From NCBI GenBank assembly GCA_000002445.1, contig CM000208.1, forward strand, positions 3,552,001 through 3,616,000: a stretch of 64,000 bases of DNA, read 5' to 3'. The stretch is from Trypanosoma brucei. Its lineage: Eukaryota. This document shows, piece after piece, positions 5,911 to 59,310 of this stretch. Position numbers and translations under genes: made by a program. Within the stretch, counting starts at the first letter, position 1. Each line of letters opens with the position of its first letter. A model generated the notes under the pieces. The model saw only the letters and a program-made list of their open reading frames with translations, was not told the DNA's origin and ran no database searches.

Positions 5911-6162
5911 GTGGACTGCACGGGTAGGGCATATAACAGTAGCGTTTAAGTGGGATAATAAGAAGGGAATTTAAAATCCACCCCGTGTTTTCAAATGCAA
6001 TTGGAACTGCATTAACACTATGCAAAAATATTCATTTTCTGTTACTATACTTGTTTCACCTCCTGCTTTAAGCAAAAATTTTTTTGTTTCCTTTATCCCA
6101 ATGTCGTTGTGTGGTCAACTTTGTCTCGTTCCGGTACGGGGGAACAACTGAAGGCGAGGTGC

Positions 6163-9610: not shown

Positions 9611-9642
9611 TTGTTTGTATTCCATCCTTAATTGTGCTGCAG
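9611..9642 (+). promoter_or_regulatory. Polypyrimidine tract plus AG: candidate trans-splice acceptor for the kinesin-14 gene.
   Basis: ttgtttgtattccatccttaattgtgctgcAG lies 5 nt before the ATG at 9647. Confidence 0.5.
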
Positions 9643-9646
9643 AAAG

Positions 9647-35350: not shown

Positions 35351-35411
35351 ATTTTTGTTGCTGCCGTTGACTGTTTCTTTATTTGCATTTAATTAAATCT
35401 CAAACAAAAAG
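35351..35411 (+). promoter_or_regulatory. Polypyrimidine tract plus AG: candidate trans-splice acceptor for IFT52.
   Basis: atttttgttgctgccgttgactgtttctttatttgcatttaattaaatctcaaacaaaaAG lies upstream of ATG 35443. Confidence 0.45.
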
Positions 35412-35442
35412 AAAAAAATCGTACACTCACAACTACTTTGCC

Positions 35443-37410
35443 ATGACGGATGCCCCAAGGGTCACTATTGCGGCCGATGGCGAGGAAACGTCGAATGGTC
35501 CAACGGCGGGTGCCGGGTTGAGGGAGCATCCACCAAAGATACTCTTCAACGTTTGCAGAAGGGAGTTATTTCACCCAAACAAGGGGTACAAGCAGTTGAC
35601 GCGGCGGCTCCGGCAGTTTTGTACGGTAGATGTTAACAAGGAGGATATCAGCATGGATCGTCTCGCGCCGTATGATATTGTTGTCTTCGGCTCACCCCAA
35701 GAGAGGTTGAGTACGGAGGATCTTTCGGTTATTCGGGAATACGTTCAGCAGGGCGGTTCTGTTATTATGCTCTTCGGAGATGGCCACGGGGGCCGCTACT
35801 CATACCTCAACGGCACGTTGGAGGAGTGGACTGGTATTACACTCAATGAGGATTGCGTGGTTCGTACGGTCATGAACAAGTACCTTCACCCTAAGGAGGT
35901 TTGTGTTGTCAATGGTATAACAAACCGGGCTATCAACAAAGCGGCAGGTAAAAATGTTCCTGGAGTCACCGGCTACCAGGGCTACCGCACGGGTTTTGCC
36001 ATGGGCGGCACCGCCCCGTTTGGAAACCGCGGCGCCCCAACGACGCTCAACCGCACTGCTACGGCTGGTGCTCTCGGCAACGCGGCAACGACGGTCGCAG
36101 CAATGGCTATGCAGCAACAACTAGTGGACGAGGCTGCAGCGGAGGCTCCAACTAACTTAACTTTTGTCTACCCGCACGGTTTGAGTTTCAATGTCAACCG
36201 TTCCGCAGTGCCAATTCTTAGCAGTGGTTTCATGGCGTACCCACTTAACCGTCCCATTGCCGTTGTATGGGAAAATAGTGATGAGGCGGAGCACAATGGG
36301 CGAAGGAAGCGAGGCAAACTGCTCCTCGTTGGTACCGGTCTCCTTCTTGAGGACTCTTGGCTTGGAAAAGAAGAAAATGAGCTGTTATCTACTGTTCTCT
36401 TTGACTATATGAACCATCATATTAAATTAAACCAAATCGATGCTGATGAGCCCGATATAACGGACTACCATCACGTACCTGATATTGCATCCCTTTCGGA
36501 GCGGCTGCGTGTTGCTGTCGAGCAGCAGGAGGAACTCCCACGTGATTTCACTAAATTATTCCAAATCGAGACATTTAAACTTGATACAGATATGATTCCA
36601 GAGGTTGTTGAGGCGTATGAGAAACTTAACGTGAAGCAGGAGCCTCTGACACTTATCCCCCCGGAATTCTTAACACCTTTGCCACCCGTCAAACCTGCTG
36701 TCTTTGAACCAACACATCGCGACCCTATGCAGCCGGCTTTGGATCTTTTCGACCTGGACGAAGAGTTTGCCCCTGATAAAGTGCGGTTGAGCCAGTTGAC
36801 CAACAAATGTAAGGCAGAGGATGTTCACTTTTACATTCTTCAGGCGTCGGAGATCCTTGGTGTCACGAAGAAATTACGGAGTCCACGAAACCGCGACCCT
36901 CGTGCACTTTTAGACCACGTGTTCCGTCATGTGATGCAGTATAAGATGAGTACAGCAGGCCCGAGGAATTCATCAGCCAGTGGGTTAGATGGGATGAACG
37001 CGGATACGAATGCTGCGGCTGCGGCTGCGGCTGGAAGTATGATGAGAGTCATTCGGGTGCTAACCAATGAGAATGGAAATAAGGATGCAACACCCTTCGA
37101 TAACAACGTCCCGTGGATGCTGGAAATCCGGGCGGACTTTGGTAGCGGTGACATTACAGGAAAACTGACACTACAGGAGTCGTCCGACCAATTCCCCGCC
37201 CAGGAAGCCCTCCTTGAAGGAACCATCAGGCCCCCTGGTGAGAGGGAATACCCAATGGAGTACGGCACGGCGCTGCGTGGTGCGGCGGGTGAGCAGGTAT
37301 TCTTTGTGTTCCTTGCTATACTTCAGGGAAATTCACTGCGCGGTGTATGTGAAGTAGCAGGAGGTGTTAACAATTCGCGCCATTTCGTCTATGAAATTGA
37401 GGAGCTTTGA
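35443..37410 (+). CDS. IFT52: Intraflagellar transport protein 52 (IFT-B core, GIFT domain).
   Basis: KILFNVCRRELFHPNKGYKQLTRRLRQ...VVFGSPQERLSTEDLSVIREYVQQGGSVIMLFGDGHGG...NEDCVVRTVMNKYLHPKEVCVVNGITNRAINKAAGK...LTFVYPHGLSFNV...YPLNRPIAVVWE...GKLLLVGTGLLLEDSWLGKEENELLSTVLFDYM...IKLNQIDADEPDITDYHHVPD...LNVKQEPLTLIPPEF...PAVFEP is collinear with human IFT52 throughout. The ORF-track start at 35383 is TTG. The first ATG is 35443 (MTDAPRV). Confidence 0.85.
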   Translation: MTDAPRVTIAADGEETSNGPTAGAGLREHPPKILFNVCRRELFHPNKGYKQLTRRLRQFCTVDVNKEDISMDRLAPYDIVVFGSPQERLSTEDLSVIREYVQQGGSVIMLFGDGHGGRYSYLNGTLEEWTGITLNEDCVVRTVMNKYLHPKEVCVVNGITNRAINKAAGKNVPGVTGYQGYRTGFAMGGTAPFGNRGAPTTLNRTATAGALGNAATTVAAMAMQQQLVDEAAAEAPTNLTFVYPHGLSFNVNRSAVPILSSGFMAYPLNRPIAVVWENSDEAEHNGRRKRGKLLLVGTGLLLEDSWLGKEENELLSTVLFDYMNHHIKLNQIDADEPDITDYHHVPDIASLSERLRVAVEQQEELPRDFTKLFQIETFKLDTDMIPEVVEAYEKLNVKQEPLTLIPPEFLTPLPPVKPAVFEPTHRDPMQPALDLFDLDEEFAPDKVRLSQLTNKCKAEDVHFYILQASEILGVTKKLRSPRNRDPRALLDHVFRHVMQYKMSTAGPRNSSASGLDGMNADTNAAAAAAAGSMMRVIRVLTNENGNKDATPFDNNVPWMLEIRADFGSGDITGKLTLQESSDQFPAQEALLEGTIRPPGEREYPMEYGTALRGAAGEQVFFVFLAILQGNSLRGVCEVAGGVNNSRHFVYEIEEL

Positions 37411-39516: not shown

Positions 39517-41865
39517 ATGCGGTTGAATATTACGATTCCCAATGAGCACCACGATGATGCCTGCACTTGCGTTGCGGTGTCGTTGACGGGCGATGTGCTA
39601 AGCGCAGGTGATGATTTCGTCTTACGGCGCTGGAGCCCTAACGGGGAGCCGATGGGTAAAGTAAAGGAATTTGATAGCTGCATCACGTACATTGCGTGGG
39701 TGCCGCTACAAGGCGGACGCAAAGGTCGCAGTGCCAATACCGGATCTGTAGAGGGGAAGGGAAATTACCTTGTGGCTTGCGCTGATGGAACAATCTCATT
39801 TATGAATACGTCTTCTGACCGTGTGGAACGTACCATCGACGCGCACACTGGCACGATAACAGGTGTTGTGTACTCTGGAGATACCTCTTCTATCATTTCT
39901 TCTGGTGAGGATGGGTGTGTTAAGGTTTGGTCACAGGCTGGTATCCCTCGCACAACTCTCGTCTCGGCGGGGAGGTGTGTCTATGGCATTTGCTGGGGTT
40001 CGGAGACAACAGAGCTCGGTGGCGATTGTGTGCTTTACTGTGTTGGTAGCGAGGTGACCATCAAACCTCTCAATCCAGCGGTGAAGAAACAGTTGAAGTG
40101 GAAGGCTCACAATGGGATTGTTTTGGCCGCAGACTGGTCACTTATGACAGGGTTCATTGTCACAGGTGGCGAAGACGGGACCTACAAGGTATGGGATCCG
40201 TACGGCCGCAGTATTTACGTTTCCGCTGCAGGTGGACATCCATGTACTGCTGTGAAGTTTTCAGCTGATGGTGAAATGTTTGCGGTGGGGTCCTTTATGA
40301 ACATTCGGGTATGTGACAAGACGGGGTGGAGTCACACATATGAACGACTTTCTGAGGGAAGTGCGCTTTCACTGCAGTGGACCGCTGATGGAACGCAGGT
40401 GGTTATGGGGTGTGGGAGTGGTTCTGTGTGTACTGCCCAGCTTATAGACCGAAAGATGTACTGGAGCCACTTCTGCGTCACTTTGGTAGACGGAAATAGA
40501 CTGCTTGTTCAGGATGTACTCACAGACGCGGTCGAGGAAGTAGAACAACGTGACAAGGTCATCAAAGTAGAAGTGGGTTACGGATACCTTGTTTCATGTA
40601 CCACAACGCAATGCGCATGCTATCCTATTGACCGCCTTTCTGCACCAGTGCAATTTGATCTCCGTGATGTCGTCATTACGCTAATCCTTGGTCAGAAACA
40701 CTTGTTGCTGGCAGATTGCAACTCTGGAATGCAGATTTACTCGTATGAGGGTCGTCTCATTTGCACCCTTCGTCTCCAATCGTTCCTGAGACCAGAGATT
40801 ATGGCGCCCGATCTTGTCTCCCTTTCGCCGGACACAGTTGCAATTCGAAATCCCGCTGATCCAAGAAAAATCCTTTTCTTTGACACCACTAATGGGAAAG
40901 CGATGGAAGATGCAACCATTACTCATCATCTTGACGTCATTTCGCTGGAGTTGTCGCAGCACGGCGAACTGAGTGAGCGCAAGATTGCCTTCGTGGATCG
41001 GAACCGCGACATGCACTTTGGAGCAGTGCATCGCAAAGTTGGAGCTGCGCAAAAAATCAGCACCATGACTTCCAGTTTAGCGTGGCACGGTGAGCATGAA
41101 ATCCTCGTTGCGATTGCGGATGGACGACTCACGACGTGGTACTATCCAACCATTCTGTTTTCCGACAGGGGTCTGCTGCCCACGACAAAGACTGTGAGAG
41201 ATGATGGTGGAGACGAGTTTTCGCGGAATGATCGAATTGTTTCGTTTTCTGGCACCCGAGTAAGCATTCGACGGGGAGTGGATGGCGCCCTCTTAACATT
41301 TAACACCTCACCGTATCCCTCCTTCATTTTCGAGCACGTGGCACGACACGACTTTTCGAGCGCCACGCGCCTCGCGCGCTTCTTGGATGAGAAACCTCTA
41401 TGGGGCATTTTGGCCGGCCTCGCCCTTCGGCACGGTGACCTGAATGTGGTGGAAATTGCATATGGTGCCCTCTTTGAACTTGACAAGGTACGCTATATTC
41501 GGTACCTAAAGAGCATTCCCACACCGGAAGGTCGGCAAGCGGAACTAGCTTTGTTTCAGCGCCGCTCAGCTGAGGCGGAGCGCATTTTACTTCAGGCTGG
41601 TCTCATATACCGCTGTATTGATATGCATACCCGATTGTTCAACTGGGAGCGCGCTTTGGAAGTCGCAGCGGAGCGGAAGACTCATGTAGACACCGTGCTT
41701 GCGAGGCGGCGGAGGTATCTCGATGCTGTAAAGAGGACAGAGGATATTCCTCTCTTTAAGGAGCTCGGTGCGTCTGTCCGTGTAGATTGGGAAACGGTTG
41801 TTGAGAAGGTGAGACAGGAGGAAGAGAAGGAAGCTCAGCGGCCTGGTGCCAAGCCCTACCAGTAG
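39517..41865 (+). CDS. IFT80: Intraflagellar transport protein 80 (IFT-B, WD40 beta-propellers plus a C-terminal helical region).
   Basis: MRLNITIPNEH...SAGDDFVLRRW and TIKPLNPAVKKQLKWKAHNGIVLAADWS...GGEDGTYKVWDPYGRSIY...FSADGEMFAVGSF...IRVCDKTGWSHTY...LQWTADGTQVVMGCGSGSV match human IFT80 MRLKISLLKEP...CSDDHQIVKW / [27 protein letters not shown]...AGEDCKYKVWDSYGRPLY...WAPDGELFAVGSF...LRLCDKTGWSYAL...IAWSIDGTQIAGACGNGHV. Confidence 0.9.
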   Translation: MRLNITIPNEHHDDACTCVAVSLTGDVLSAGDDFVLRRWSPNGEPMGKVKEFDSCITYIAWVPLQGGRKGRSANTGSVEGKGNYLVACADGTISFMNTSSDRVERTIDAHTGTITGVVYSGDTSSIISSGEDGCVKVWSQAGIPRTTLVSAGRCVYGICWGSETTELGGDCVLYCVGSEVTIKPLNPAVKKQLKWKAHNGIVLAADWSLMTGFIVTGGEDGTYKVWDPYGRSIYVSAAGGHPCTAVKFSADGEMFAVGSFMNIRVCDKTGWSHTYERLSEGSALSLQWTADGTQVVMGCGSGSVCTAQLIDRKMYWSHFCVTLVDGNRLLVQDVLTDAVEEVEQRDKVIKVEVGYGYLVSCTTTQCACYPIDRLSAPVQFDLRDVVITLILGQKHLLLADCNSGMQIYSYEGRLICTLRLQSFLRPEIMAPDLVSLSPDTVAIRNPADPRKILFFDTTNGKAMEDATITHHLDVISLELSQHGELSERKIAFVDRNRDMHFGAVHRKVGAAQKISTMTSSLAWHGEHEILVAIADGRLTTWYYPTILFSDRGLLPTTKTVRDDGGDEFSRNDRIVSFSGTRVSIRRGVDGALLTFNTSPYPSFIFEHVARHDFSSATRLARFLDEKPLWGILAGLALRHGDLNVVEIAYGALFELDKVRYIRYLKSIPTPEGRQAELALFQRRSAEAERILLQAGLIYRCIDMHTRLFNWERALEVAAERKTHVDTVLARRRRYLDAVKRTEDIPLFKELGASVRVDWETVVEKVRQEEEKEAQRPGAKPYQ

Positions 41866-42763
41866 GAACCTGAAGGTTTTGGATATGGTGTTCGTGATGA
41901 AGGCGGGAGGTTTTGATGCCTATGCGGAGGTGGGTGGAGGGGGGTGGTGAAGGATTGGACAAGGCTGCGTGAAGAAAGGAGGGAAGAGAAGAAGAAGAAT
42001 AGGAAATTGCATTGTGTAGTAGTGCTGGCTGTTAAATCAAGGACCCTATTTGTTAGTGCAGGAGTGTATAGATCAACAACAAGGACAGCGGGAAGTTTTA
42101 TAAAGGAGGAGGAAGGAGAAAGTTTGGGAGTATCATGTGGGGTAAATGGAAGGAAGGGAGAGTACTTGCTTCTGCTCAGCACCTCTTAGCCTTCCTCTCG
42201 TTTTCCCACCGTTTCTTGGTTTTGCGTGCCAACTCTCTTAGAGGTGAATGCTTTTATATTATATTTTACTTTTTAACCTTGTCTTTACTTCTGAGCCTGG
42301 CATCTCTTATTCCTCTACGTTGCTACTAAAGACACGGTGCAAGCGATGCCTTGCGTGCATAATTTGCGGACCTTAACGGATGAATGTCTTGTACCGTGTT
42401 GGAAAGGGAAAAGAATGTGAACATGCGGAGAGAAAACAGTTTTCCCCCCCTTTCCCCGTGACATGTGGACGCTTTTTTATTCTTCTATCTACACAGTCGC
42501 ACGCGGGAGCGCATCCGCACTGCTAGGTTTTTTTCTTTTCGCGCACCGTGAATTGTTTCTTCCCGTTTGTCGAATGACACTTTTGTTTCGGTTTGACGAC
42601 TGAAGTGTGCCAAAGCTGATCAAGACAGAGGAAGGTTGTACATTAGGAGGTGTGGAGAGCGAGAACAGCCGGAAATCCAGTGAAGCCAAAGGAACATCTG
42701 CTTATATACTCAGGGACGCGAGAGAGCAAAAGGGTTGGTAGAGGATATTTGGACGGAGCAGCA

Positions 42764-44032
42764 ATGATAGGCGGTCAGCACAAGAAGGAACGCATCAGTG
42801 AGCGGCTCCAAAACTGCCAGAATCAGCCAAAGAACCGCTGCTACCTTCCGGGCACGCAGTTGCTGACAGGCGGATATAGTACCAAAACATTACAGGGTAA
42901 CTGGAGTGAGGAACGGGCGGATGCCGGCTACTACGACGGAAAGGCAATTGTTCCAACACATCTCTCCAAAATTTGGACGACGGAGTACACAGTCATGACA
43001 AACCATGCAATGAAGAGGGCTCAGGAGCAGGCGCCCGTCTTTGATCAGGCAACGTTGGTTGATATTGTGGACCGCAATCACCGTGCATATCCCACTCATC
43101 AGCCGCACCTCGACCCTCAACTTCCAAAATTGAAGGAAGAGGCGTTTAAAACAACAATGAGGACCTCGTTTAACCACCCGCAGGAAGTTAAGCTGCGTGA
43201 GGAGGCGTATGTCCGACCAGTTATCGGAAACACACCTGCCGCCCAGGCCAGGGCAATCATAATGCGCTTTCGGCGGCAGCTGCTGATTTCAATGGAAGGA
43301 CAGTCCGCTTTTCCGGGGAACGTGCTCCGGCAGGTGCGCCTCGCGCTGGAGAGGAATGATGTCGTCGGCAACGGAGTGCTCAACGTTGAGGAGACATTTC
43401 GCGGCTTCACTGAGGCTGGTGTAGAGACGAGTATACCGGAGTGTGTTGCTCTTGTTCGCGGACTTGACATGAAGGGTGATAACATGCTCTCGATTCGTAA
43501 GGTCATGGATGAAATGCGTGGGGAGGAACGGGATCGCCGGTACAGTATTATTGAGGGTGTGTATGAGTTGCTGAAGAAGCTGTGCAGTAATGGGGTTGTG
43601 CGGCTACACCACCTCGTCGATCTGATTGATGTCGACTCCATGGAGTCGGTGTTAAACGGAACTGTGTCTTCTGCTGACGCTCTCCGCGCGTTTACCACCC
43701 AGTGGGATCTGCCTTTGGAGGCACACATCAGCTTTGAAACGTTCCACACCTTTTTTAGAGATTCTTCGTTTGAGCTGAAAACCGATCAGGAATTCGAGAT
43801 CCTCATGCGCAACGTGTGGCACCTTAGTGGAGGTAATGGAAAGAATGTAAACACATCATGCCGGAGATTAAATGTGGTGCATAAGGATGGACGTGCCAGC
43901 GTACAGGAAGTTAAGGATGATCTAGATATCAAAGATGATGACCCGAATTTGATGGAGCGTATTTTGGCCAACCTGGCGACGCAGGGAATAAAGGATGTTT
44001 CCTCACTGACCATCATCCCGAAACGCCGATGA
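42764..44032 (+). CDS. Calcyphosin (CAPS/CAPSL)-like EF-hand protein with an N-terminal extension.
   Basis: ARAIIMRFRRQLLISMEGQS...LERNDVVGNGVLNVEETFRGFTEAGV...LVRGLDMKGDNMLSIRKVMDEM and TDQEFEILMRNVWHLSG parallel calcyphosin [40 protein letters not shown]...WDRNGSGTLDLEEFLRAL and TDEEFVAMMTSAWQL. The EF loops are partly degenerate. The ORF-track start at 42650 is GTG. The first ATG is 42764. Confidence 0.5.
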   Translation: MIGGQHKKERISERLQNCQNQPKNRCYLPGTQLLTGGYSTKTLQGNWSEERADAGYYDGKAIVPTHLSKIWTTEYTVMTNHAMKRAQEQAPVFDQATLVDIVDRNHRAYPTHQPHLDPQLPKLKEEAFKTTMRTSFNHPQEVKLREEAYVRPVIGNTPAAQARAIIMRFRRQLLISMEGQSAFPGNVLRQVRLALERNDVVGNGVLNVEETFRGFTEAGVETSIPECVALVRGLDMKGDNMLSIRKVMDEMRGEERDRRYSIIEGVYELLKKLCSNGVVRLHHLVDLIDVDSMESVLNGTVSSADALRAFTTQWDLPLEAHISFETFHTFFRDSSFELKTDQEFEILMRNVWHLSGGNGKNVNTSCRRLNVVHKDGRASVQEVKDDLDIKDDDPNLMERILANLATQGIKDVSSLTIIPKRR

Positions 44033-44826: not shown

Positions 44827-46056
44827 ATGTTTCAGCGATGGTCGTTTGCCCTGTGTCGACCTATCGTTGCGGCAGCACAGGTATCGCAACAGCAAGTGCC
44901 TCCATCTGAGGAGCCACGGAACGAGTCAGGTGCCGCAAACCCTCCGCTGGTGAAGGAAGAGTTCCTTCGGCAGTTTCGCGAGCGTTTGGCGAATGACAAG
45001 ACGGGAAGAAATTCATTGGAGGGGTTTCTTGACCTTCCGGAGAATCTTCCACCCACCGCCGCCTCAATTGGACCACTGAAGCGAGGTAAGGAGCCTCTTC
45101 CTCCTTGGTTGAAACTCAAAGTTCCTATGGGAGCATCGAGGCAGCCGCGGTTTAACAAGATACGGCGCAATATGCGTGAAAAACGTCTAGCTACTGTGTG
45201 TGAGGAGGCCAAGTGCCCAAACATCGGTGAATGTTGGGGAGGAGGTGATGAGGAAGGGGACGGCACCGCCACTGCCACAATCATGGTGATGGGGGCACAT
45301 TGTACAAGGGGCTGCCGCTTCTGTTCCGTAATGACGAGTCGCACACCTCCACCACTAGACCCAGAGGAACCACGCAAAACTGCTGATGCAGTCGCTGACA
45401 TGGGTGTGGAATATATAGTTATGACTATGGTGGACCGTGATGACTTGGCTGACGGTGGCGCTGCTCATGTTGTGCGCTGCGTGACGGCCGTGAAGGAGAG
45501 GAATCCCGGACTACTTCTTGAGGCACTTGTTGGGGACTTTCACGGAGACCTCAAGCTGGTTGAAATGGTTGCTGGTTCACCTCTCAATGTCTATGCTCAT
45601 AACATAGAGTGTGTCGAGCGAATTACGCCAAACGTACGAGATCGACGCGCTTCTTATCGACAGTCCCTTAAGGTACTTGAGCACGTGAATAATTTCACTA
45701 AAGGAGCTATGCTCACCAAGAGCAGTATCATGCTTGGGCTCGGGGAAAAGGAGGAGGAGGTGCGGCAAACCCTTCGTGACCTGCGGACGGCGGGCGTTTC
45801 TGCTGTGACCCTGGGCCAGTACCTCCAACCCTCACGGACGCGGCTAAAGGTCAGTCGCTACGCCCATCCTAAGGAGTTTGAGATGTGGGAAAAGGAAGCG
45901 TTGGATATGGGCTTTTTGTACTGTGCATCGGGGCCCATGGTACGGAGCTCCTACCGAGCTGGTGAATATTACATTAAAAATATTTTGAAACAGCGGGAGA
46001 CTGTCGAAGCTCCGTCAGTGTCAGATGGAGGGAATGAACCAAAGGATTCCGAGTAG
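44827..46056 (+). CDS. LIPA: Lipoyl synthase (radical-SAM LipA/LIAS), mitochondrial type with an N-terminal extension.
   Basis: [16 protein letters not shown] (C-x4-C-x5-C auxiliary cluster), [22 protein letters not shown] (radical-SAM CxxxCxxC), [36 protein letters not shown] and [13 protein letters not shown] are collinear with human LIAS. N-terminus [18 protein letters not shown] looks like a presequence. Confidence 0.9.
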
Positions 46057-47130: not shown

Positions 47131-50100
47131 ATGGACGCTGACGAGGGCAGTGCGCCGGACGAGGAGCAGAGTATGGTGGTTGACCGAGTTGCACTCTCAA
47201 TAAGTGATATTTCATGTATGCGCCTTGATGGTTGTCGTGTACCGTCGAGATCCTCCAGAGCGTCGCATAGGTGGTCACATCCACAACGGCCGCACCGTCA
47301 ACCTGTTGGAGATGTTTCCTCGTCGTTGTCGCATGCCGCATCGCAGGGAAGTAGAACGTCACCACCTTCTTTTGTCTTTGCGACTCGCGTGTGCCGAAGT
47401 TTTGACTCAGTGAGTCAATCCGGCGGTGTGTTCGATTCGGTGGTGAGAAATCATGATGGGGAGAGCGTCAGAAGCAACTCAGAGGTAGTTAAGCACAACA
47501 CGTGCTTAGAGCATTCGCAGAAAACATGCCTTTCGTCCGTTTCGCTCCCACCGTTGAGTGAAGCATGCAGGGGGCACGAGGTAAGTTATGGTCTCAGCAG
47601 AAGAAGAATGTCTTTCACTTCATCGTTTTCTCCTCTACCCTGTTCGCCGGTACCGAAAGAACTCTCCCCCGGCCTACTTACATCCATACCGTGGAACCTC
47701 CCGACGCTAGGGTGGAAAGGGATGACACCAACCGCTTCTAACGTGCATGAGGGCCAAGCGACGAATTACGGTGAGGAGCAATGTGGGGAAAGAGTTGCAA
47801 ATGATACCCGCGCGTACAGAATTCTCAATATGAGCAATTCTGGAGGCGCCGTCGCGACCGATGCGAGTGTTTCTAGGGAACGGTGGTTCCACGTGCAACA
47901 TCAGAGCTTCCGCAAACGCTACATAGGGCACCTCAATTGTGTTTACGCAATATACAGGTCTCTCGTGCCAAGGAACTCTCCCCCGGCGGCTTCGCAGAAT
48001 ATTTCTCTCGGAGACACCCCTACCCTTGACCGCCGCGTCCGGTCGGTGGCTCTGTCATCTGCGTCAACTGTTACCGGTGTGGCTGCCGGTTACTACACGC
48101 TGAGTGACAGTGCCTCGACACGGTGCTCAGGCGGGCAAAACGTGCCCGTCGTACCGCGTGCTGTGAGGGGTTTCTCGCCTCGGCGCCGTGGGAGGCAGCG
48201 GGCACTTTCTTCTAGGGAGATGGACCCATTTATTCTAGGACTTATCAAGAGAAGAGTCTTATTCAGGACCACCATATTTTGTGAGTACACATATAACTGT
48301 ATTAAACATTCGGAGGAGCTACGGCTCTCGTCGTCAGAGATAGTCGAACCGTATACTGAGCAGGAATATGCGGTTTCTTCTCATTCGCAAAATGGTAGTG
48401 CTTTTACAACTTCTGTGGGTCGAGCTGAGAGCGACCGTGTGGCTACCAGCGCATCTGACGGGTCGTCTTCCATATTTTTTGATGATACACATAGAACGGC
48501 ACCACCACCAGGGAATGATGGAAAAAGACGAACTTCAGTAGTGTCCCCACCGCATGAAGAAACACCAATGGCTGTTCACCACCGGACGCTAACCCGGCTA
48601 CAAACGTTAACAACAAAGGTCCACAGTGTAGACCGTGTCATGCGCACAGTGGATAATGAGGAGGATGATCTTGTTGTTTATGTAGGTATGATTTTAATGG
48701 GTTGGCTGGAGGTCGTTGATCTTCTTGGATCTGGTACGTTCGGGCAGGTTTTTCTCTGCAAGGACTTGCGAATCGCCAACAAAACTTTTGTACACCCAAG
48801 CCAGATAGAGGGAGATGACTTTCAGTACTGGCAGTGCTCTCACACGTATATACCATTCGGTGATCCCTCAATGGTACCAACCCATACACCACTTGTGGCT
48901 GTAAAGGTTGTCAAAAGCCGCGAACTATTTGAACAGCAATCTGCTCGTGAGGCTGAGATTTTAGTGCACGTCAGTTCGCAAACGGCATCGCAAGAAGAGC
49001 AACCCGCAGAGGAGCAGCAGGCGTTTCCGGCACTGTCCTTTTCAGATCCACCCGTGCCCGACTACCGTTGCGAATATGTGGGTAAGATACTTGCGCACGG
49101 AATATGCTATGGTCATCACTGCATAGTTATGGAACGATATGGTGTTAATTTGTTTGAGTACGCGATGGCACGTGGTTTTAAAGGTCTTCCCATGTATCAG
49201 ATACAGGACATAGGCCGAAAAATCTTGCTGGGGTTAACTCTTTTGCACGAGGAATGCCACGTAGTGCACTGTGACATAAAACCCGAAAACGTTTTAATTA
49301 CACTCGATTCCTGGCTTTCTGCCAATCCAGTCCATATGGCGCTCACGGTCGGTGCTCATACACCGGGTTCTGGTGCCTCCGGAGCCATTTCACTGGATGC
49401 ATCGGCTGGGCAGTTGCATCAATCGTTGAGATGGCCGGCAAGCAATGGCTTACCTCCACTCTCCGATTCGAAATTACCGAATGGCGCTGTGCACTCCCCT
49501 ACACCTCGGCGTATGCAGATTGCTGCTTCCACCGAACGGATGTCGATGTCCTCCATTTTGAGGGAGGTTGCACCAGCTGGTTCGGCGGCAGCGAGCTCTC
49601 CTGGACTGAATAACGGTGCTGAAGATGATCCGAACCTTCCTCGCATTCCTGCATCGCCGTCTCTTTTACCGCTGAACATAAAGCTCATTGACTTTAGCAG
49701 TAGCTCTTACATTGGAAAAGGAATCCATACGTATGTACAGTCCCGCTACTATCGCGCACCAGAGGTCATTGTTGGTGCCGGCTATGGGCCAGCCATTGAT
49801 GTGTGGTCTACTGGCTGTCTTTTGGCGGAACTGCTGTTAGGCCTTCCACTTCTACCGGGAGACTCGGATCATCATCAACTCTCCCTCATTGAGGAAATGC
49901 TCGGGCCGTTGCCTCTTTCATTGTTAGCGAAGGGTGCAGCCACGCTCGAATACTACGATGTGGATGATGTTGAATTGAGAAGTGAAAGTGCAGGCGCGTC
50001 TGCATCAGAGGAAACTCCTGCGGGTCACAAAAAATCACCCTCATTTCGTCTCTTGAGTGAGGAGGAGTATCTTCGCCATCACAGGGATGCAAAACCAACA

Positions 50101-50418
50101 AAGGGAAAACGGTATTTTCAGTTCCACACACTTGCCGAACTAATCAGGAAATGTACAGCTAGCAATGAGGAAAGGTGTATTGCAACAGGGTATAGTCCAT
50201 CCGCTGCCATGGATGCCAACGTGATGGAAATGGTCTCAACGCAGCAACCGAGGAAAGAGATTGCTGACGAGATTTCGCGTCATCGATTCCGTTTTTATGA
50301 TTTACTAAAAAAAATGCTCCACGGCGATCCCGAGAGGCGCCTTACGGCCCGTGAGGCATTGGCACACAGCTTTTTTCAAGAAACACCAAAATATTTACAG
50401 GTATACTCACAACGTTAG
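47131..50418 (+). CDS. DYRK-family (CMGC) protein kinase with a roughly 500-aa S-rich N-terminal extension and a large insert in the catalytic domain.
   Basis: DH-box-like DNEEDDLVVYVG. Gly-loop LGSGTFGQVF, VAVKVVK, catalytic loop HCDIKPENVLI (the DYRK HCD variant), then a ~129-codon insert (49300-49686) before IKLIDFSSSSY (DFS in place of DFG). Activation loop IHTYVQSRYYRAPEVI (DYRK YxY-region, H-T-Y). DVWSTGCLLAELLLG. Confidence 0.8.
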   Translation: MDADEGSAPDEEQSMVVDRVALSISDISCMRLDGCRVPSRSSRASHRWSHPQRPHRQPVGDVSSSLSHAASQGSRTSPPSFVFATRVCRSFDSVSQSGGVFDSVVRNHDGESVRSNSEVVKHNTCLEHSQKTCLSSVSLPPLSEACRGHEVSYGLSRRRMSFTSSFSPLPCSPVPKELSPGLLTSIPWNLPTLGWKGMTPTASNVHEGQATNYGEEQCGERVANDTRAYRILNMSNSGGAVATDASVSRERWFHVQHQSFRKRYIGHLNCVYAIYRSLVPRNSPPAASQNISLGDTPTLDRRVRSVALSSASTVTGVAAGYYTLSDSASTRCSGGQNVPVVPRAVRGFSPRRRGRQRALSSREMDPFILGLIKRRVLFRTTIFCEYTYNCIKHSEELRLSSSEIVEPYTEQEYAVSSHSQNGSAFTTSVGRAESDRVATSASDGSSSIFFDDTHRTAPPPGNDGKRRTSVVSPPHEETPMAVHHRTLTRLQTLTTKVHSVDRVMRTVDNEEDDLVVYVGMILMGWLEVVDLLGSGTFGQVFLCKDLRIANKTFVHPSQIEGDDFQYWQCSHTYIPFGDPSMVPTHTPLVAVKVVKSRELFEQQSAREAEILVHVSSQTASQEEQPAEEQQAFPALSFSDPPVPDYRCEYVGKILAHGICYGHHCIVMERYGVNLFEYAMARGFKGLPMYQIQDIGRKILLGLTLLHEECHVVHCDIKPENVLITLDSWLSANPVHMALTVGAHTPGSGASGAISLDASAGQLHQSLRWPASNGLPPLSDSKLPNGAVHSPTPRRMQIAASTERMSMSSILREVAPAGSAAASSPGLNNGAEDDPNLPRIPASPSLLPLNIKLIDFSSSSYIGKGIHTYVQSRYYRAPEVIVGAGYGPAIDVWSTGCLLAELLLGLPLLPGDSDHHQLSLIEEMLGPLPLSLLAKGAATLEYYDVDDVELRSESAGASASEETPAGHKKSPSFRLLSEEEYLRHHRDAKPTKGKRYFQFHTLAELIRKCTASNEERCIATGYSPSAAMDANVMEMVSTQQPRKEIADEISRHRFRFYDLLKKMLHGDPERRLTAREALAHSFFQETPKYLQVYSQR

Positions 50419-53731: not shown

Positions 53732-55300
53732 ATGGGGGGAGGCGCTTGCAAAATGGAGCGCCATGACGTGCAGCCGAGGGTTTCCAGTAGTCGGGTCAGC
53801 GATTGCTCCACGCCCAGGCAACAGGGAGTTACTTCCGATTCAAGTGAAACCGTTAAAAAAGAAGAGGAACAGCAACAACAACCGATTCTTATACCAAGAC
53901 AACCTTTGGGACCAGGAGCTACCACACCGCCACGGCCAATGGGTGTTGTTAAAATTGGTGACCCACTGGATATTAGAAGTGGTGTCGGAAGCCCACAATG
54001 TGATGTAACTCTGACAACAAACAACACTTGGAACCACTCAACCTCGGCCTTCACTACGAGGTTACCCCATTTTGTGAACACGGAGGGATTTGATGCCTCC
54101 ACAGGTGTTAGGTGGACGGACAACGATACGGCACCAAACCGTCCTCGATCCCGTCGAACATCTATACTAGTAGAAAAGGAAAGTGCGGCTTATCATAACG
54201 GTTATCCTGCTACATATGATGGTGACAGGCACCAGCGGAGTTACTCTCGTGGAGGAAGTTGGTACAAAAATGCCGAGAACAGTGTTTTCCTCCGTTCCAC
54301 TGATATGCCGTCCTTTGCTGGGAATAGCGCACGTTACCCTGGTGATGAGAATAGGAACAAGTCGTTTGCGTCGGCTGCAAATAGTTCATACTTTTTTGGT
54401 GCCAGTTGCAGCCGTCGGAGCGTTGCCCGCAGCGGGACTTGCGTCGTGAACCTGGCAGAAAGCACGAAAACTTTGAGAGGGGCGATGGCAACCTTAAGAA
54501 AGCATGTTCAGCAGGGAGCGAAACCTCTGTCATTGCGAAGTTCATATCGGGATGTTGGTGGTTCCATGGGTTGCTCTTATAATGACGACGTCCCCAGGTC
54601 GAGACTACCGAGCATTTTTACTGCTAACAACGCTATTACGCCTGCACCGGATGGGTCAATGTATGGTGAGTATAATGCATTTAATCGTGATTATGATGCT
54701 CCGGGGGTGTTGGGTGGTGGAAGGGGCGCGATGTTCCCCAACGTTCCCATCAATGGAGGTTTTAAAAAGTCTTCTGTACCCGCGCCACATGTGGGTTCCT
54801 TGTTAGAGTTAGTGGACACTTCTACCGTTTCAGTGTTTGCAGCGGATTCGCGTGCGGAAAGTACGGACGATGCGAATAAGCAACAGCTGCGACGAGTGGC
54901 AAACAATGTGGGGTGCAGTCCTGTTGTAAAGGTCGCATCACCTCCGCGGCAGGCTCAGAGAAATTGTAGGGTTGTTGTTCGGGAGGATTTGGATGGTGTG
55001 GAGTGGCACACAAAAAATGTCGAGTTCCCCGTAGTTGGTAGCGATGAAGGAAACAAAAGTCGCGAAGTTAGCACCACGTTTGCATTGCCCGGATCAATTT
55101 GTACATTTGGGGCCACTACTGACGTAAGTGAAGATAGTGGTCCACGCGGTTGGGTTGGCGTTGGGGGGGATTTTGGAGTTAGTAGTAGTGATTGGTATGC
55201 ACGGCAACGCAGTAAGTTAATGTCTGATGAGTCCGACGTAAACTCTAAGGATGGTGCAGGTGAAGTTGATTCCAGTGGTGACGCCGCGGAAGAGATGTAG
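53732..55300 (+). CDS. Hypothetical S/G/N-rich low-complexity protein (522 aa). N-terminus MGGGACK could be N-myristoylated and palmitoylated.
   Basis: ATG-initiated ORF on the coding strand in an otherwise gene-poor 8.7 kb stretch. Gly2 and Cys6 match the dual-acylation pattern of trypanosomatid flagellar membrane proteins (calflagin/HASPB-like MGxxC). No other domain. Confidence 0.45.
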   Translation: MGGGACKMERHDVQPRVSSSRVSDCSTPRQQGVTSDSSETVKKEEEQQQQPILIPRQPLGPGATTPPRPMGVVKIGDPLDIRSGVGSPQCDVTLTTNNTWNHSTSAFTTRLPHFVNTEGFDASTGVRWTDNDTAPNRPRSRRTSILVEKESAAYHNGYPATYDGDRHQRSYSRGGSWYKNAENSVFLRSTDMPSFAGNSARYPGDENRNKSFASAANSSYFFGASCSRRSVARSGTCVVNLAESTKTLRGAMATLRKHVQQGAKPLSLRSSYRDVGGSMGCSYNDDVPRSRLPSIFTANNAITPAPDGSMYGEYNAFNRDYDAPGVLGGGRGAMFPNVPINGGFKKSSVPAPHVGSLLELVDTSTVSVFAADSRAESTDDANKQQLRRVANNVGCSPVVKVASPPRQAQRNCRVVVREDLDGVEWHTKNVEFPVVGSDEGNKSREVSTTFALPGSICTFGATTDVSEDSGPRGWVGVGGDFGVSSSDWYARQRSKLMSDESDVNSKDGAGEVDSSGDAAEEM

Positions 55301-56552
55301 GCAAAAGAGTAGCAGAGGTGATTAATTTCTCCTACTTGGGTTCCATTTTATTACCATTATTAATTTAGGAACAACTAAATATTAACGAAATAAAGGAAGA
55401 AAACAAAAAAGAGAACGAAAAAAAAGAAAAAGAAAGAAAGAAGATAAATAAAGGGGACGTGGGAGAGCAGAAGAAAAAAAAAGGAAAAGCAAAAGGAAAA
55501 GAAGCTAGAAAAGTAATGGTGCCCATCACATGATGGCAAAAAGGGAAGTGTGTACGTGCCAATGTGGAGGTGAGGGAAGTGAACTGATCCTTTACTTTTG
55601 TCGCGCAGTTGTTATTATTGTAAGGGTTGACTATCATTATTTTTATTGGTGTTATTGTTACTATTATCATTTCAACGAGTAAAGTGAACGATCAGCAAGT
55701 GAATAAGCACGAGCAAGTAACCATTAATAATTATATTGCATACAGTTGTACAATTATGTGTGTAAATGTACCTGTGTGTACGCGTTTTTTTTCCCCCTTT
55801 ATGCTTGTATGTTCGAATCCGGGGATTTAAGTTGTTGTTTTTGTTGTTGTTGTTGGGGTTTTCAAATGTTGTGGGGGATTTCTTCTTCACTCCTCTTCTT
55901 CTTTTTTTTTCTACTTTTACGTTTGGAAGCTCGGCGATACAGAACGCAGAACTTTTCCTTTTTTTTTTTGGTTTAATGCTTATTATTGGTACTGCTGCTG
56001 CTGTTGTCGCTGTTGTTGTTCATTCTAGTCAACATCCTCTCTCAATCGGCCCTTTCCCGTCCTTTCCATGTTATTTTCATTATTTCCACCGCAGTCGCCA
56101 CCATCGTGTTTTCGATTCCCCATCCCTCTTTCTCTCTTTCTTTCCTTTCATTTTTTTTGTTATTATTACTGTTTTCATTGTTATTGTCTCTGTTGCTGGC
56201 CCTTATTAATCGCAATTGTTACTCTTCTTTTCACCTCCATCCCCCTCTTTTTGTGTGTTGTGTGTTTGTATGTGTTTGGCTGTTGTAATTTGTTTGTTTG
56301 TTCTTTTTTCACCTCCCTCCTTCCAACCCCGCATCTTATATTTCGGGTGTCGGGACTGCAACTTCTTGAAAATACCTTTTTTTTTTAATTTTTTACGTTT
56401 GTCGTCGTTCTTTTGCCTCCCTTTTTTTTTTCCTCACTTCGGTGATACTTCCTCCCTTCCTTCCCTTTCTTTTTCCCTTTCTTTTTTGTTTTTGTATGTG
56501 TCTTATATCCCACTTTTTTTCTTTTTTGAGCAGCAAAATAAAAAAAGAAACA

Positions 56553-56557
56553 CATAA

Positions 56558-56600
<43 letters not shown>

Positions 56601-56601
56601 A
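56553..56601. repeat. Compound (CA)n(TA)n microsatellite. A second (TA)n lies at 56675-56698.
   Basis: aacacacacacacacacacatatatatatatatatatatatatataatg. Confidence 0.9.
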
Positions 56602-58347
56602 TGATAATAATAACAACGGAAACGATGATGGTGATAATATGTATAGGTGTGGATGTATATGAGGATGTATGCGTACATATATATATATATATATATATGC
56701 ACGGGGGGTTCTGAAAAGGATATAAAAAAAAACGTAGAGGCGTCATAATTTGAGTTTACTTTTTTCTGTTTTTTGAAAGGGTTTCGTCTTATTGTTTCGT
56801 ACTTTTTAAAATATCATGGTAATATGGGTAAGGAGGAAGTTTTTTTTTTTGTTCAAAAATTAACATTATGTCCGACGGTGTGTGGTTTGTGGTGCGATTG
56901 TTGTCTGTTTCGTCCGCGGTGTGCGATTTGGGGTTTGAGGGAAGCAAAAAAAGAAAAGATTTGAAATAAAGGAGGGTGTAATTTCCCACTATGGTGACGT
57001 TATTGTTGTGGGTTTTATCAGATGATTGTTTATTATTACCATTATTAGTATTACTATTACTACTACTTTCCACTGTTTCGCTTTTCTTTTTTTTCCTTTT
57101 TCCTTTTTTTTAAAAATTCTATTCCCCTCCCTTGCATCAGTTTCGATGATTAAACACTTACGTTTTGATCACAAATTTTGTGTGAAGCTTCCTCTCTTTG
57201 ACTTTAGTTTTTTTTTGTTTTTGGCGCTCCCATTTGATTTGATCTCTCTTTTTAAGTTTCGGTTTCCCACTCTGTCACCTTCTCCCCTCCCTTTAAATCC
57301 TCACTTTAGTCTTTTGTTGTATTCGGGTATCCATGTTGCGCTACGCCCAGCTGTTTGGAATATTACTTCGGAAGATGAAAAGTTCGGTTTATTTATTTAT
57401 TTATTATTTTTTTTTACGTTCTTTCTTTCTTTCTTCGACATGTTTGTTTTTTCCTATTCTCGAAATCAAAGGCATCACCAACACCACCACCACCAGCAGA
57501 ATTAAGTGAACACATCCGCGAGTTACTGCCATGTGTTAATCCCTTTGCCTTTCTACCCTTCGATGATTTTAAAAAAAAAATTTCCCTTTCGTTTCATGTT
57601 TTTCATCTATATTTTCTTATTCATCCCTTTCTTTCTTTCTTTCTTTTTTCTTTCTTTTTTTCATCCCTTTACATATATAAATAAATAAATATATATATAT
57701 ATATATATATATTTGAGATGTCTTCTTCCCTCGTATCCTCTGTTGCCCTCATTTTACGCGTCCAGAAACTTCCATCATGAGGTGTGACTGCTTTCTTTCT
57801 CCTTTTTGGTGTTAATATGTCTTCAATTCCCTTATAACTTATTGTAATGTTAATTTACCATTCAAAAGGGTTGAAAGATAGAGGGAATGTGTTTTGTTTC
57901 TGTGATATCCTGCTTTAAATTTTTGTCTTTTAATATCTTATTAAGCTTTCTACTCTCTCTCTTTTTCTTTTTTTTCTTTTTGTCCCCCTCCTTTAAAGTT
58001 TTTTCTCGCATATTTTCTCTTGTCCCGTCATCTTTTTGTGCTGTGGTTGTTGGGTGCCGCACATTTTTATGCATACCTCGTTGATGCGGTGATGAAATGC
58101 TGACTTTTTTTTTTTAAAAAAAAGAATCTATCGCGAAGGAGGCTCGATATGTTTGTTGGTTCATCTGTGTGTAAACACATAAATATGTCTTTTTATGCAT
58201 GATTGCCATCAATTTGTTCGTTTCTTTGTTTGCTCGGTTTGTTTTCGTTACTTTTTGTTGTTCCTCATCAACCCGTGTTCCCTCCTTCCGTGAAGGTGGT
58301 TTTAATCTGTTTGTGAATCCGTTTTGTTTCTGTGTGTTTGTGTGTCT

Positions 58348-58392
58348 TTGTTGTTGTTGTTGTTGTTGTTGTTGTTTTGTTTTGTTTTGTTT
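58348..58392. repeat. (TTG)9 followed by (TTTTG)4.
   Basis: ttgttgttgttgttgttgttgttgttgttttgttttgttttgttttt. Confidence 0.9.
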
Positions 58393-59310
58393 TTTTGTGT
58401 CATCTCACTTCATCTCCTTCCCCATTTTTTGTCTTTCCATTATGCATGTGTACTTACATTGCGTATTCTTTTTTTTTTCCCCCTCTTCCTTCTTCTCTTC
58501 AGCTCTCGTACTTTTTGTCTTATTTCCTCTTTCCTTCGCTACATTCTGTTTTGGGGTCTGCAGCTGCCAAACATATATATATATATATGTTTTATTTATT
58601 TAAATGGTGTTACATTTCCCGCTGCTTCTTTACGAGCATTCAAAACTCTTCTCTTTTTCTTCTCCCTCTCTTCTCCACTTAATCCGTCTATAAATCTGCT
58701 TCTTCATGTATTTAGGCGTTTACCGGCTTCCCTTCAGTGGTTGCACCTCCTTACCCCACCAAAAAAAAAAAATGATTTTGGGATCGGAGAGGTTTAAAAG
58801 GTTGAAGGGAGACGGTGGGAAGAGGAAAGAGGAAGACAAACAGACAAACAAACAAATGCTCAAATATATAAAGAAAAGTACAAGGGACAAAATGTTAGTA
58901 GCGGTGGTGGCACGAGGAGATAATAAAAGAGGGGAAACCCTTCCGAATCGGAGATACGAGATGGAAATTAGGAAGTGCCACACACGCCGGAGAGCATCAG
59001 CGTAACAAAACGTGATGTCACTAATGCAGTAAGCAGGAATTAACCAGCCAAGCAGCCAGGACTGAATTACCAGAGGAAGTCCCAATAACAACAAAAGGAA
59101 ATTAAAACATTTGGTCATATATATACGCTTGTTTGTTGTATCTACTTCCCTCAGCTGGCGCTTCCTTTTTTTTTTTGGTGCGTGTGTGTGTTTTTGGATA
59201 GTCTCGTGAGCAGGTTTGTGAAAGTAAGTTTACTTTGAGATGCCCATTCTTGGTACAAATTATTATATTCTATTTGCTGTGACAGTTTGGACTATTACAC
59301 CTACTTGACC

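Follow-up and report, generated by a model that had tools for sequence, protein, structure and literature searches.

TbDYRK of Trypanosoma brucei, a divergent DYRK-family kinase with a DFS motif and a long core insert predicted to be largely disordered

A protein kinase encoded in a 64,000-nucleotide stretch of Trypanosoma brucei DNA (hereafter the window) has its kinase core split by a long insert between the catalytic loop and the position of the DFG motif, and the glycine of that motif is a serine. This locus raises the question of whether such a layout is genuine and compatible with catalysis and, if so, what the insert may contribute. The gene is a single unbroken frame from ATG to stop:

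47131..50418, + strand: complete coding sequence of TbDYRK (Tb927.10.15020), 1095 amino acids, assigned by the open reading frame, 100% protein identity and residue numbering

The encoded protein matches XP_827978.1/Q388A6 of T. brucei brucei TREU927 at 100% identity, the gene lies downstream of IFT52 and IFT80 (Tb927.10.14980 and Tb927.10.14990), and all eight residues compared (T76, S77, S472, K592, E607, S856, H866, and Y868) carry the same numbers as in PMC7136023. Because of this perfect match, the neighboring genes, and the agreement in numbering, we are highly confident that the gene is TbDYRK, i.e., a divergent and catalytically active CMGC kinase resembling DYRK2, which promotes the slender-to-stumpy differentiation of bloodstream forms in quorum sensing. 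The TbDYRK of Cayla et al. 2020 (eLife 9:e51620, PMC7136023) is the same protein with the same DFS (S856), HxY (H866/Y868), and three inserts. The DFS motif, the H-x-Y loop, and an insert of 119 residues had therefore been published and mutated before, so that the original prediction was correct in its observation yet not new, and the same paper holds counterparts of all checks that it had proposed (orthologue alignment, kinase assays that include a mutant of the tyrosine, and a list of mapped phosphosites). T. brucei requires TbDYRK to switch to the transmissible stumpy form in a density-dependent manner, and the knock-out lowers differentiation (PMC7136023). The kinase ties density sensing to the post-transcriptional control of a transition that limits virulence and allows tsetse transmission. 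While this biology is already published, the present analysis adds the ancestry of DFS, the recent origin of the HxY histidine, the expansion of the third insert, its ordered ends, and a conserved island within it. No Rfam families were found in the window.

The kinase core begins around aa 495-530 and is recognized by a split Pfam Pkinase match (8.3e-34). Its landmarks are the following:

48727..48750, + strand: glycine-rich loop GSGTFGQV, aa 533-540
48895..48906, + strand: VAVK with the catalytic lysine K592
49267..49299, + strand: catalytic loop and strand beta7, HCDIKPENVLI, aa 713-723
49690..49698, + strand: DFS, D854-F855-S856, replacing DFG according to alignments
49726..49734, + strand: activation-loop H866-T867-Y868 replacing the DYRK YxY, aligned to YTY of DYRK3

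Membership in the DYRK family, as originally proposed, agrees with comparisons of the core after excision of the inserts. Among PDB sequences, DYRK2 scored best (172 bits), followed by DYRK3 and HIPK2 (167 bits each), CLK1 (163), DYRK1B (162.5), DYRK1A (159), PRP4 (147), and SRPK (ca. 120), and Foldseek with the AlphaFold2 (AF2) model of the core gave DYRK1A/1B and HIPK2/3 as best matches (target TM-score 0.80-0.87). The sequence thus points to DYRK, with a placement among DYRK, HIPK, and CLK that rests on small margins (172, 167, and 163 bits) rather than on a tree; a published phylogeny sets TbDYRK beside DYRK2 (PMC7136023). Like the class II kinases DYRK2 and DYRK3 of humans, TbDYRK has QSRxYRAPE and the second tyrosine of the activation loop as well as a segment before the core that loosely resembles a DH box, and its published substrate consensus R-P/R-x-S/T-P resembles theirs. 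Unlike them, it has DFS for DFG, HxY for YxY, three core inserts, and an N-terminal extension of ca. 495 residues. HIPK2 and HIPK3 come close with a near-DYRK score (167 bits) and the top target TM-score of 0.87 (7ncf), but they carry DFG and lack an insert between strands beta7 and beta8. The orthologues used below were recovered by an exhaustive representative search, since a word-indexed search with the full protein had missed them at candidate selection and returned only the cluster of brucei-group sequences and three unrelated long kinases.

An N-terminal extension of about 500 residues had also been predicted and is real:

47131..48612, + strand: N-terminal extension, aa 1-494, free of Pfam matches and holding the regulatory phosphosites T76, S77, and S472
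48649..48681, + strand: putative divergent DH box VDNEEDDLVVY, aa 507-517, read from the sequence; a "potential divergent DH box" according to PMC7136023

The extension shares only 21-29% identity with other Trypanosoma orthologues (9% with an N-terminally truncated T. rangeli entry). Mutants of its phosphosites are inactive, i.e., these sites are required for activity (PMC7136023). The region of the putative DH box is better conserved (69-92% identity in orthologues; pLDDT 95-97 in the AF2 model), and VDNEEDDLVVY is spaced as expected from the glycine-rich loop, with only a loose fit to the DH consensus. Of the NAPA segments, NAPA-1 is divergent and NAPA-2 absent (PMC7136023).

Loss of the DFG glycine and of the first activation-loop tyrosine, together with three inserts, could suggest a pseudokinase that serves as a non-catalytic scaffold, and the finding that K592A retains 48% of the measured activity (PMC7136023), unusual for a mutant of the catalytic lysine, would fit this idea as well. 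However, the catalytic residues K592, E607, D715 (of HCD), N720, and D854 are all present along with the APE motif, and the purified enzyme phosphorylates Casp9 as well as 38 phosphopeptides on 29 lysate proteins, while its H866A variant gave no significant phosphorylation (PMC7136023). Mutations at the atypical positions themselves reduce activity to 7-13%, i.e., to 13% for S856G, 6.8% for H866A, and 10.5% for Y868F (PMC7136023). Finally, trypanosomatids keep DFS without exception, which speaks for selection and against decay. We therefore consider a pseudokinase very improbable and regard TbDYRK as an active enzyme.

The serine in place of the DFG glycine was correctly predicted, though not its description as a magnesium-binding residue, because the magnesium ligand of this motif is the aspartate, which is present as D854. 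The surrounding IKLIDFSSS covers aa 850-858 (nt 49678-49704) and so includes the position of ca. nt 49687 given for it, and that of HCDIKPENVLI had been exact. All named trypanosomatid orthologues carry IDFSSS unchanged, and DFS is the ancestral state of this orthologue group. S856A retains 70% activity; the authors interpret their S856 mutants as evidence for a rigid, pre-activated "DFS-in" conformation, based on an I-TASSER model that they themselves describe as of low confidence (PMC7136023). Selective inhibitors could take advantage of the atypical active site. In the activation loop, the predicted H-T-Y with its retained tyrosine was recovered as H866-T867-Y868, and Y868 is a mapped phosphosite (PMC7136023). 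Besides T. brucei, only T. vivax and Angomonas have histidine at the first position, while the other orthologues including T. congolense and T. cruzi have tyrosine. On this distribution, HxY is derived, and its histidine, which T. congolense lacks, is a recent change.

The most conspicuous feature of the protein is the third of the three core inserts of 36, 22, and 119 residues described in PMC7136023 (insert III):

49300..49677, + strand: insert III, aa 724-849 from motif to motif, from DYRK3/HIPK2 alignments
49495..49518, + strand: proline-rich basic island SPTPRRMQ, aa 789-796, inside insert III, from the orthologue alignment and a position-specific scoring matrix (PSSM)

HCDIKPENVLI and IKLIDFSSS are 126 residues apart (about 129 had been predicted), compared to seven residues in DYRK3 and none in HIPK2 in HMMER alignments. 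Relative to DYRK2, the net insertion comprises ca. aa 727-845 (119 aa, nt 49309-49665), and its excision yields one ungapped DYRK2 alignment. The segment had been described as rich in serine, alanine, and proline, and by count leucine joins them (S20, A18, L15, and P15 of 126 residues).

This low-complexity S/A/P/L composition and the fact that inserts are rare at this site raise the suspicion that the segment is an artefact of a frameshift, misassembly, unrecognised intron, or fused gene, with the true DFG hidden inside, though we found no evidence of this kind. On the contrary, one uninterrupted frame crosses the whole ORF, and five other brucei-group sequences, two of them from independent read-set assemblies, have the same length of 1095 aa with one to four substitutions and no indels. 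An independent contig is 99.45% identical at the DNA level. The ten named trypanosomatid orthologues are interrupted at the same site, and the gene as well as the whole window contain no tandem repeats that we could find. Scanning the entire protein for D[FLYWMI]G gave a sole match, DIG at aa 693, which lies upstream of the catalytic loop and hence outside insert III, while IKLIDFSSS falls on the DFG strand in alignments to DYRK2/3 and HIPK2. Moreover, the full-length protein has been expressed, purified, and found active, and a variant lacking insert III was inactive (PMC7136023). An artefact thus has a negligible probability, and both ways in which the original prediction could have failed, i.e., an assembly error or a DFG within the insert, are ruled out.

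Insert III is a loop at the turn between strands beta7 and beta8. All named trypanosomatid orthologues share its site along with DFS, and the distance from the end of HxDxKPENxx to IDF amounts to 95-231 aa in all of them but only 20-22 aa in two environmental relatives. Based on these short-insert relatives, insert III probably arose or expanded within or just before the trypanosomatids. Its middle (aa 740-829) is poorly conserved (9-21% identity in orthologues), and pLDDT in the AF2 model is below 50 at aa 740-754 and 765-829. Toward the edges the prediction changes, with a helix at the start flank (aa 724-739, pLDDT ca. 85) and a rise from 53-65 to 94 at the end flank just ahead of beta8. 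These models suggest a turn loop of variable length and sequence that is largely disordered with ordered ends.

Within this otherwise unalignable sequence, the proline-rich basic island is kept from T. brucei to Leishmania: SPTPRRMQ aligns with APEPRRVH of Leptomonas, TPEPRRSQ of Leishmania enriettii, and APSPFRIH of T. cruzi. With T. brucei left out of the training set, a PSSM placed aa 788-797 first among ca. 1086 positions (8.6 vs 4.2 bits). The island was not recognisable in the alignment for T. congolense, the closest orthologue sampled. A second candidate, L-[ED]-x-S-x-x-x-L at aa 754-766 with a marginal AF2 helix, had seemed conserved in the MAFFT alignment and was rejected since its PSSM rank was only fifth. 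We also scanned insert III for the DYRK consensus R-x-x-[ST]-P as a sign of possible autophosphorylation or pseudosubstrate sites. None was found there, RGFSP at aa 346 being the sole instance in the whole protein; the insert does hold five [ST]-P sites.

What could be the role of insert III? It had been proposed to sit where other CMGC kinases have regulatory inserts and to be a docking or regulatory module specific to the lineage. The first point is well founded, since the SRPK spacer occupies the equivalent place (PMC5293202). In SRPK1, this spacer (aa 227-489, ca. 260 aa) splits the kinase core, is reported to be largely dispensable for activity, and governs cytoplasmic retention through chaperones (PMC5293202); a residual spacer was also seen at the equivalent place in our SRPK1 alignments. 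Like SRPK1 and Sky1p with their largely disordered spacer, TbDYRK has a long, poorly conserved segment, predicted to be largely disordered, between the catalytic-loop and DFG halves (ca. 119 aa vs ca. 260 aa in SRPK1). The likeness is one of layout and not of family, as the score of the TbDYRK core with SRPK1/Sky1p falls ca. 50 bits short of that with DYRK2. Regarding the second point, the insert is lineage-specific. A role as a docking or regulatory module is conjectural; the published deletion inactivates the kinase in vitro, and none of the nine phosphosites listed in PMC7136023 falls inside it.

A spacer in the SRPK sense would be dispensable for catalysis and set the location of the kinase in the cell, e.g., in granules or by cytoplasmic anchoring, via chaperones or other partners. 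The shared topological position, some 80 residues of predicted disorder, a very low conservation save for one short island, and published work that relates TbDYRK to cytoplasmic differentiation granules (PMC10998879) are all in line with this possibility. On the other hand, deletion of insert III abolishes activity in vitro where the SRPK1 spacer is reported to be largely dispensable, and its island is not shared recognisably by T. congolense, so that we regard this explanation as rather doubtful. It also seems unlikely, if conceivable, that a partner or substrate docks on the island (roughly [AS]-P-x-P-x-R) and thereby connects the kinase with quorum sensing or RNA granules, in which case the effect of deleting insert III would come from the lost ordered flanks and not from the centre; that the island is not recognisable in T. 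congolense argues against an indispensable docking motif. We rather favor a structural contribution in which the ordered ends of insert III would pack on the core and help to position beta8 and DFS, which could explain the loss of activity upon the published deletion of 119 residues. The disordered centre may then form a flexible platform, possibly for binding of a partner at the conserved island by analogy to the SRPK spacer. The published effect of the insert III deletion is a loss of activity in vitro only, and a folding defect could be its cause.

The two shorter inserts and a further extension of the core lie elsewhere in the domain:

48769..48876, + strand: insert I, ca. aa 547-582 (36 aa), between glycine-rich loop and VAVK, boundaries approximate
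48985..49050, + strand: insert II, ca. aa 619-640 (22 aa), after helix C, a gap in comparison to HIPK2/DYRK3, boundaries approximate
49966..50265, + strand: CMGC insert region, ca. aa 946-1045, seen as gaps in PDB alignments and longer than in human DYRKs, boundaries approximate

Deletion of insert I, II, or III one at a time inactivated the kinase in vitro (PMC7136023). The CMGC insert region is extended between helix G and helix H and shares 23-55% identity with orthologues, and insert II shares 35-56% identity within Trypanosoma (pLDDT 73-87). Insert I is 70-80% identical within Trypanosoma and predicted to be ordered (pLDDT >94), and all named trypanosomatid orthologues have a spacing of 56 from the glycine-rich loop to VAVK, compared to 32 in P0028, an environmental homologue that bears DFG.

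The kinase gene under study is TbDYRK (Tb927.10.15020), a well-studied locus of which every flagged feature had already been described and mutated in 2020. Its product is 100% identical to the T. brucei brucei TREU927 entry XP_827978.1 / EAN78866.1 / Q388A6, and the gene number follows from counting identifiers by tens onward from Tb927.10.14980 and Tb927.10.14990, which are T. brucei IFT52 and IFT80 (PMC8141408). Cayla et al. (eLife 2020, PMC7136023) named Tb927.10.15020 "TbDYRK" and discussed its residues T76, S77, S472, K592, E/Q607, S856, H866, and Y868; at these eight positions the window protein has T, S, S, K, E, S (of the DFS motif), and H and Y (of HTY). The motifs reported in the original prediction were all read from the sequence where it had placed them:

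47131-50418, + strand: TbDYRK ORF, an unbroken frame of 1095 aa
49267-49299, + strand: HCDIKPENVLI, aa 713-723
49678-49704, + strand: IKLIDFSSS, aa 850-858
aa 854-856, + strand: DFS in place of DFG
aa 866-868, + strand: HTY (HxY) in place of the DYRK YxY

Phylogenetically, TbDYRK is a divergent DYRK beside DYRK2, with a potential divergent DH box, a divergent NAPA-1, and no NAPA-2. Its core carries three inserts (36, 22, and 119 aa), and across trypanosomatid orthologues the 36- and 22-aa ones are "relatively well conserved" (PMC7136023). The three lie between the Gly-rich loop and VAVK (insert I, ca. aa 547-582), after helix C (insert II, ca. aa 619-640), and between HCDIKPENVLI and IKLIDFSSS (insert III). 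Removal of any one insert left no activity on a Casp9 substrate, and activity also needs N-terminal phosphosites as well as H866 and Y868, with 6.8% left in H866A, 10.5% in Y868F, and 18% in the double mutant (PMC7136023). The active enzyme further depends on serine, or at any rate on a residue other than glycine, in the DFS motif (13% activity left in S856G, ca. 70% in S856A), and the authors view these mutants in terms of a rigid, pre-activated "DFS-in" state based on an I-TASSER model that they themselves describe as low-scoring (PMC7136023). Eight of the nine phosphosites are in the N-terminal region and the ninth is Y868, so that none falls in insert III; substrates include ZC3H20 and NOT5, with a consensus (R-P/R-x-S/T-P) similar to that of DYRK2/3, and stumpy formation goes down in the knock-out and up on ectopic expression (PMC7136023). 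In 2024, a study of differentiation granules used the S856G allele to provide a catalytically disabled control (PMC10998879). All checks suggested in the original prediction are thus covered by PMC7136023, and what we add is incremental: that DFS is ancestral while HxY is derived and not shared by T. congolense, the range of lengths that insert III takes and how little of it there is in environmental relatives, an order/disorder map from AlphaFold2, and one island that is conserved although insert III had been described as poorly conserved.

The insert between catalytic loop and DFS is real, though slightly shorter than the ca. 129-130 residues first proposed. Motif to motif it spans 126 residues, and HMMER alignment to solved structures placed the end of HCDIKPENVLI and the IKLIDF motif at residues 343 and 351 of DYRK3 and at 153 and 154 of HIPK2, which gives a net insert of ca. 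119 residues (ca. aa 727-845). S, A, L, and P are abundant in it, and it splits the Pkinase domain in Pfam, which has no match in residues 1-523. An artefact by frameshift, misassembly, or a hidden DFG can be excluded because the frame is continuous, six brucei-group sequences agree, orthologues carry an insert at this position as well, and active full-length protein has been expressed (PMC7136023). The true DFG does not lie within the insert as had been considered: a scan of the protein for D[FLYWMI]G found no DFG-like triplet there, and its single match, DIG at aa 693, comes before the catalytic loop. It was also mistaken to regard the glycine of DFG as the magnesium-binding residue, since this is the aspartate, which is present as D854. 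With the catalytic residues intact and activity published, TbDYRK is not a pseudokinase.

The six brucei-group sequences form one cluster (TREU927, T. b. gambiense DAL972, two T. equiperdum entries, and two Logan read-set assemblies), in which the other members differ from the window protein by 1-4 substitutions and no indels. One Logan contig is 99.45% identical to the window DNA with 13 differences in the CDS (nine synonymous), including four within insert III (three synonymous). Amino-acid polymorphisms among the six are V104L, V279L, D295G, and A432G in the N-terminal extension and V813A and A830D in insert III, with none in the kinase core, insert I, or insert II.

With all three inserts cut out, the core was compared to PDB sequences and matched DYRK2 best (172 bits) in a single stretch without a gap at the beta7-beta8 turn, followed by DYRK3 and HIPK2 (167 bits each), CLK1 (163), DYRK1B (162.5), DYRK1A (159), PRP4 (147), and SRPK1/Sky1p (about 120). 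An AlphaFold2 model of aa 495-1095 from a 49-sequence alignment (mean pLDDT 83.7, pTM 0.83) found its best PDB matches in DYRK1A/1B and HIPK2/3 (target TM-score 0.80-0.87). By these core scores TbDYRK is not an SRPK, yet the closest architectural analogue of insert III is the SRPK spacer, a disordered segment that splits the CMGC core at an equivalent point and, by way of chaperones, controls localisation (PMC5293202). A similar role as localisation spacer is possible for the disordered centre of insert III by analogy; however, catalysis can reportedly do largely without the SRPK spacer (PMC5293202), whereas insert III is needed for activity according to the published deletion.

Within Trypanosoma, identity to T. 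brucei is 60-92% for core segments, 70-80% for insert I, 35-56% for insert II, and 21-29% for the N-terminal extension (9% for a truncated T. rangeli entry). At 9-21% identity across all orthologues, the middle of insert III is thus conserved as poorly as this extension. In the AlphaFold2 model (protein residue = model residue + 494), pLDDT is above 94 for insert I and 73-87 for insert II. Insert III begins with ca. 16 helical residues (TLDSWLS...; pLDDT about 85), falls below 50 at aa 740-754 and 765-829, and climbs from 53-65 to 94 into beta8 (...SLLPLN). In a MAFFT alignment, TLDSxxS is kept after beta7 and PxL before beta8, and a proline-rich basic island appears as SPTPRRMQ in T. brucei, APEPRRVH in Leptomonas, TPEPRRSQ in L. 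enriettii, APSPFRIH in T. cruzi, and EPLPLRRR in T. vivax; it was not recognisable in insert III of T. congolense. A PSSM built from the non-T. brucei species ranked aa 788-797 first of ca. 1086 T. brucei positions (8.6 vs 4.2 bits). A second island (L-E/D-x-S) failed the same test and was dropped.

We infer that insert I adds an ordered, conserved element to the N-lobe and that insert III is a long loop out of the beta7-beta8 turn, the ordered ends of which probably pack on the core. Because the published deletion removed 119 of the 126 aa, it took these ends too, and their loss could misplace beta8 and the DFS aspartate, which could alone explain the inactivity. The central ca. 80-90 residues would probably be a flexible platform with the conserved island as candidate docking site; that the island is a functional docking motif is a rather unlikely reading.

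An exhaustive representative search matched a graded series of T. congolense, T. grayi, T. theileri, T. cruzi, T. rangeli, and T. vivax as well as Leptomonas pyrrhocoris, Phytomonas, Leishmania enriettii, Angomonas deanei, and environmental sequences. A word-indexed search with the full 1095-aa query had returned no trypanosomatid orthologues although their identity is 40-51% and their E-values go down to 0; a negative from indexed search therefore does not mean absence for kinase-containing queries. An insert at this place and DFS are both kept in the named trypanosomatids. IDFSSS is unchanged in all of these orthologues; of the three closest environmental relatives, two also have it and one has DLS instead, so DFS is ancestral in this orthologue group. 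The activation-loop histidine is confined to T. brucei (HTY), T. vivax (P0015, HSY), and Angomonas deanei (P0021, HSY), while YTY is the motif of T. congolense (P0010), T. cruzi, T. rangeli, T. grayi, and T. theileri, and Leishmaniinae and Phytomonas have YxY. Judging from these sequences, the histidine is a derived change that apparently arose more than once, and the "atypical HxY" is not a trait of the whole orthologue group.

The spacing from Gly-loop to VAVK across insert I is constant at 56. Measured as the stretch between HxDxKPENxx and the IDF of the DFS motif, the insert III distance is 116-132 aa in Trypanosoma, 176-231 aa in Leishmaniinae and Phytomonas, 95 aa in Angomonas, 20, 22, and 49 aa in three environmental relatives, and 13 aa in a HIPK-like outgroup. 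These relatives (P0022, P0023, and P0026, from JGI/IMG and ENA) have a DH-box-like segment, the insert I spacing, and DFS or DLS in common with TbDYRK, and their 20-49 residues at insert III may represent the state before its expansion.

All annotated genes of the window are on the + strand, matching expectation for one polycistronic unit, and cilium/flagellum genes (CEP104, IFT52, IFT80, CFAP68-like) form a run on the same strand as TbDYRK:

6109-8715, + strand: CEP104 homologue, further upstream
35383-37410, + strand: IFT52, upstream of TbDYRK
39517-41865, + strand: IFT80, upstream of TbDYRK and next to IFT52
42650-44032, + strand: CFAP68-like ORF, a weak match (E = 3e-4) below the Pfam cut-off
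44827-46056, + strand: lipoyl synthase, upstream of TbDYRK

The region at 56000-59000 is AT-rich (GC 0.32-0.39, AT skew -0.29 to -0.39, local GC skew dip of -0.28 at 57-58 kb), has no ORF above 160 aa between the flanking ORFs at 53732-55300 and 59466, and is probably intergenic or UTR sequence, long and rich in T. The frame from the ATG at 59466 (+) stays open past the window end at 64000 (>1510 aa), and its protein start looks WD40-like by eye. The ORF at 9632-12109 (+; 825 aa) has a VHS domain near its N-terminus (aa 10-136, E = 1.8e-8) and a kinesin motor near its C-terminus (aa 500-815, E = 4e-113); a VHS-kinesin fusion with the motor in this C-terminal position is unusual in its architecture.
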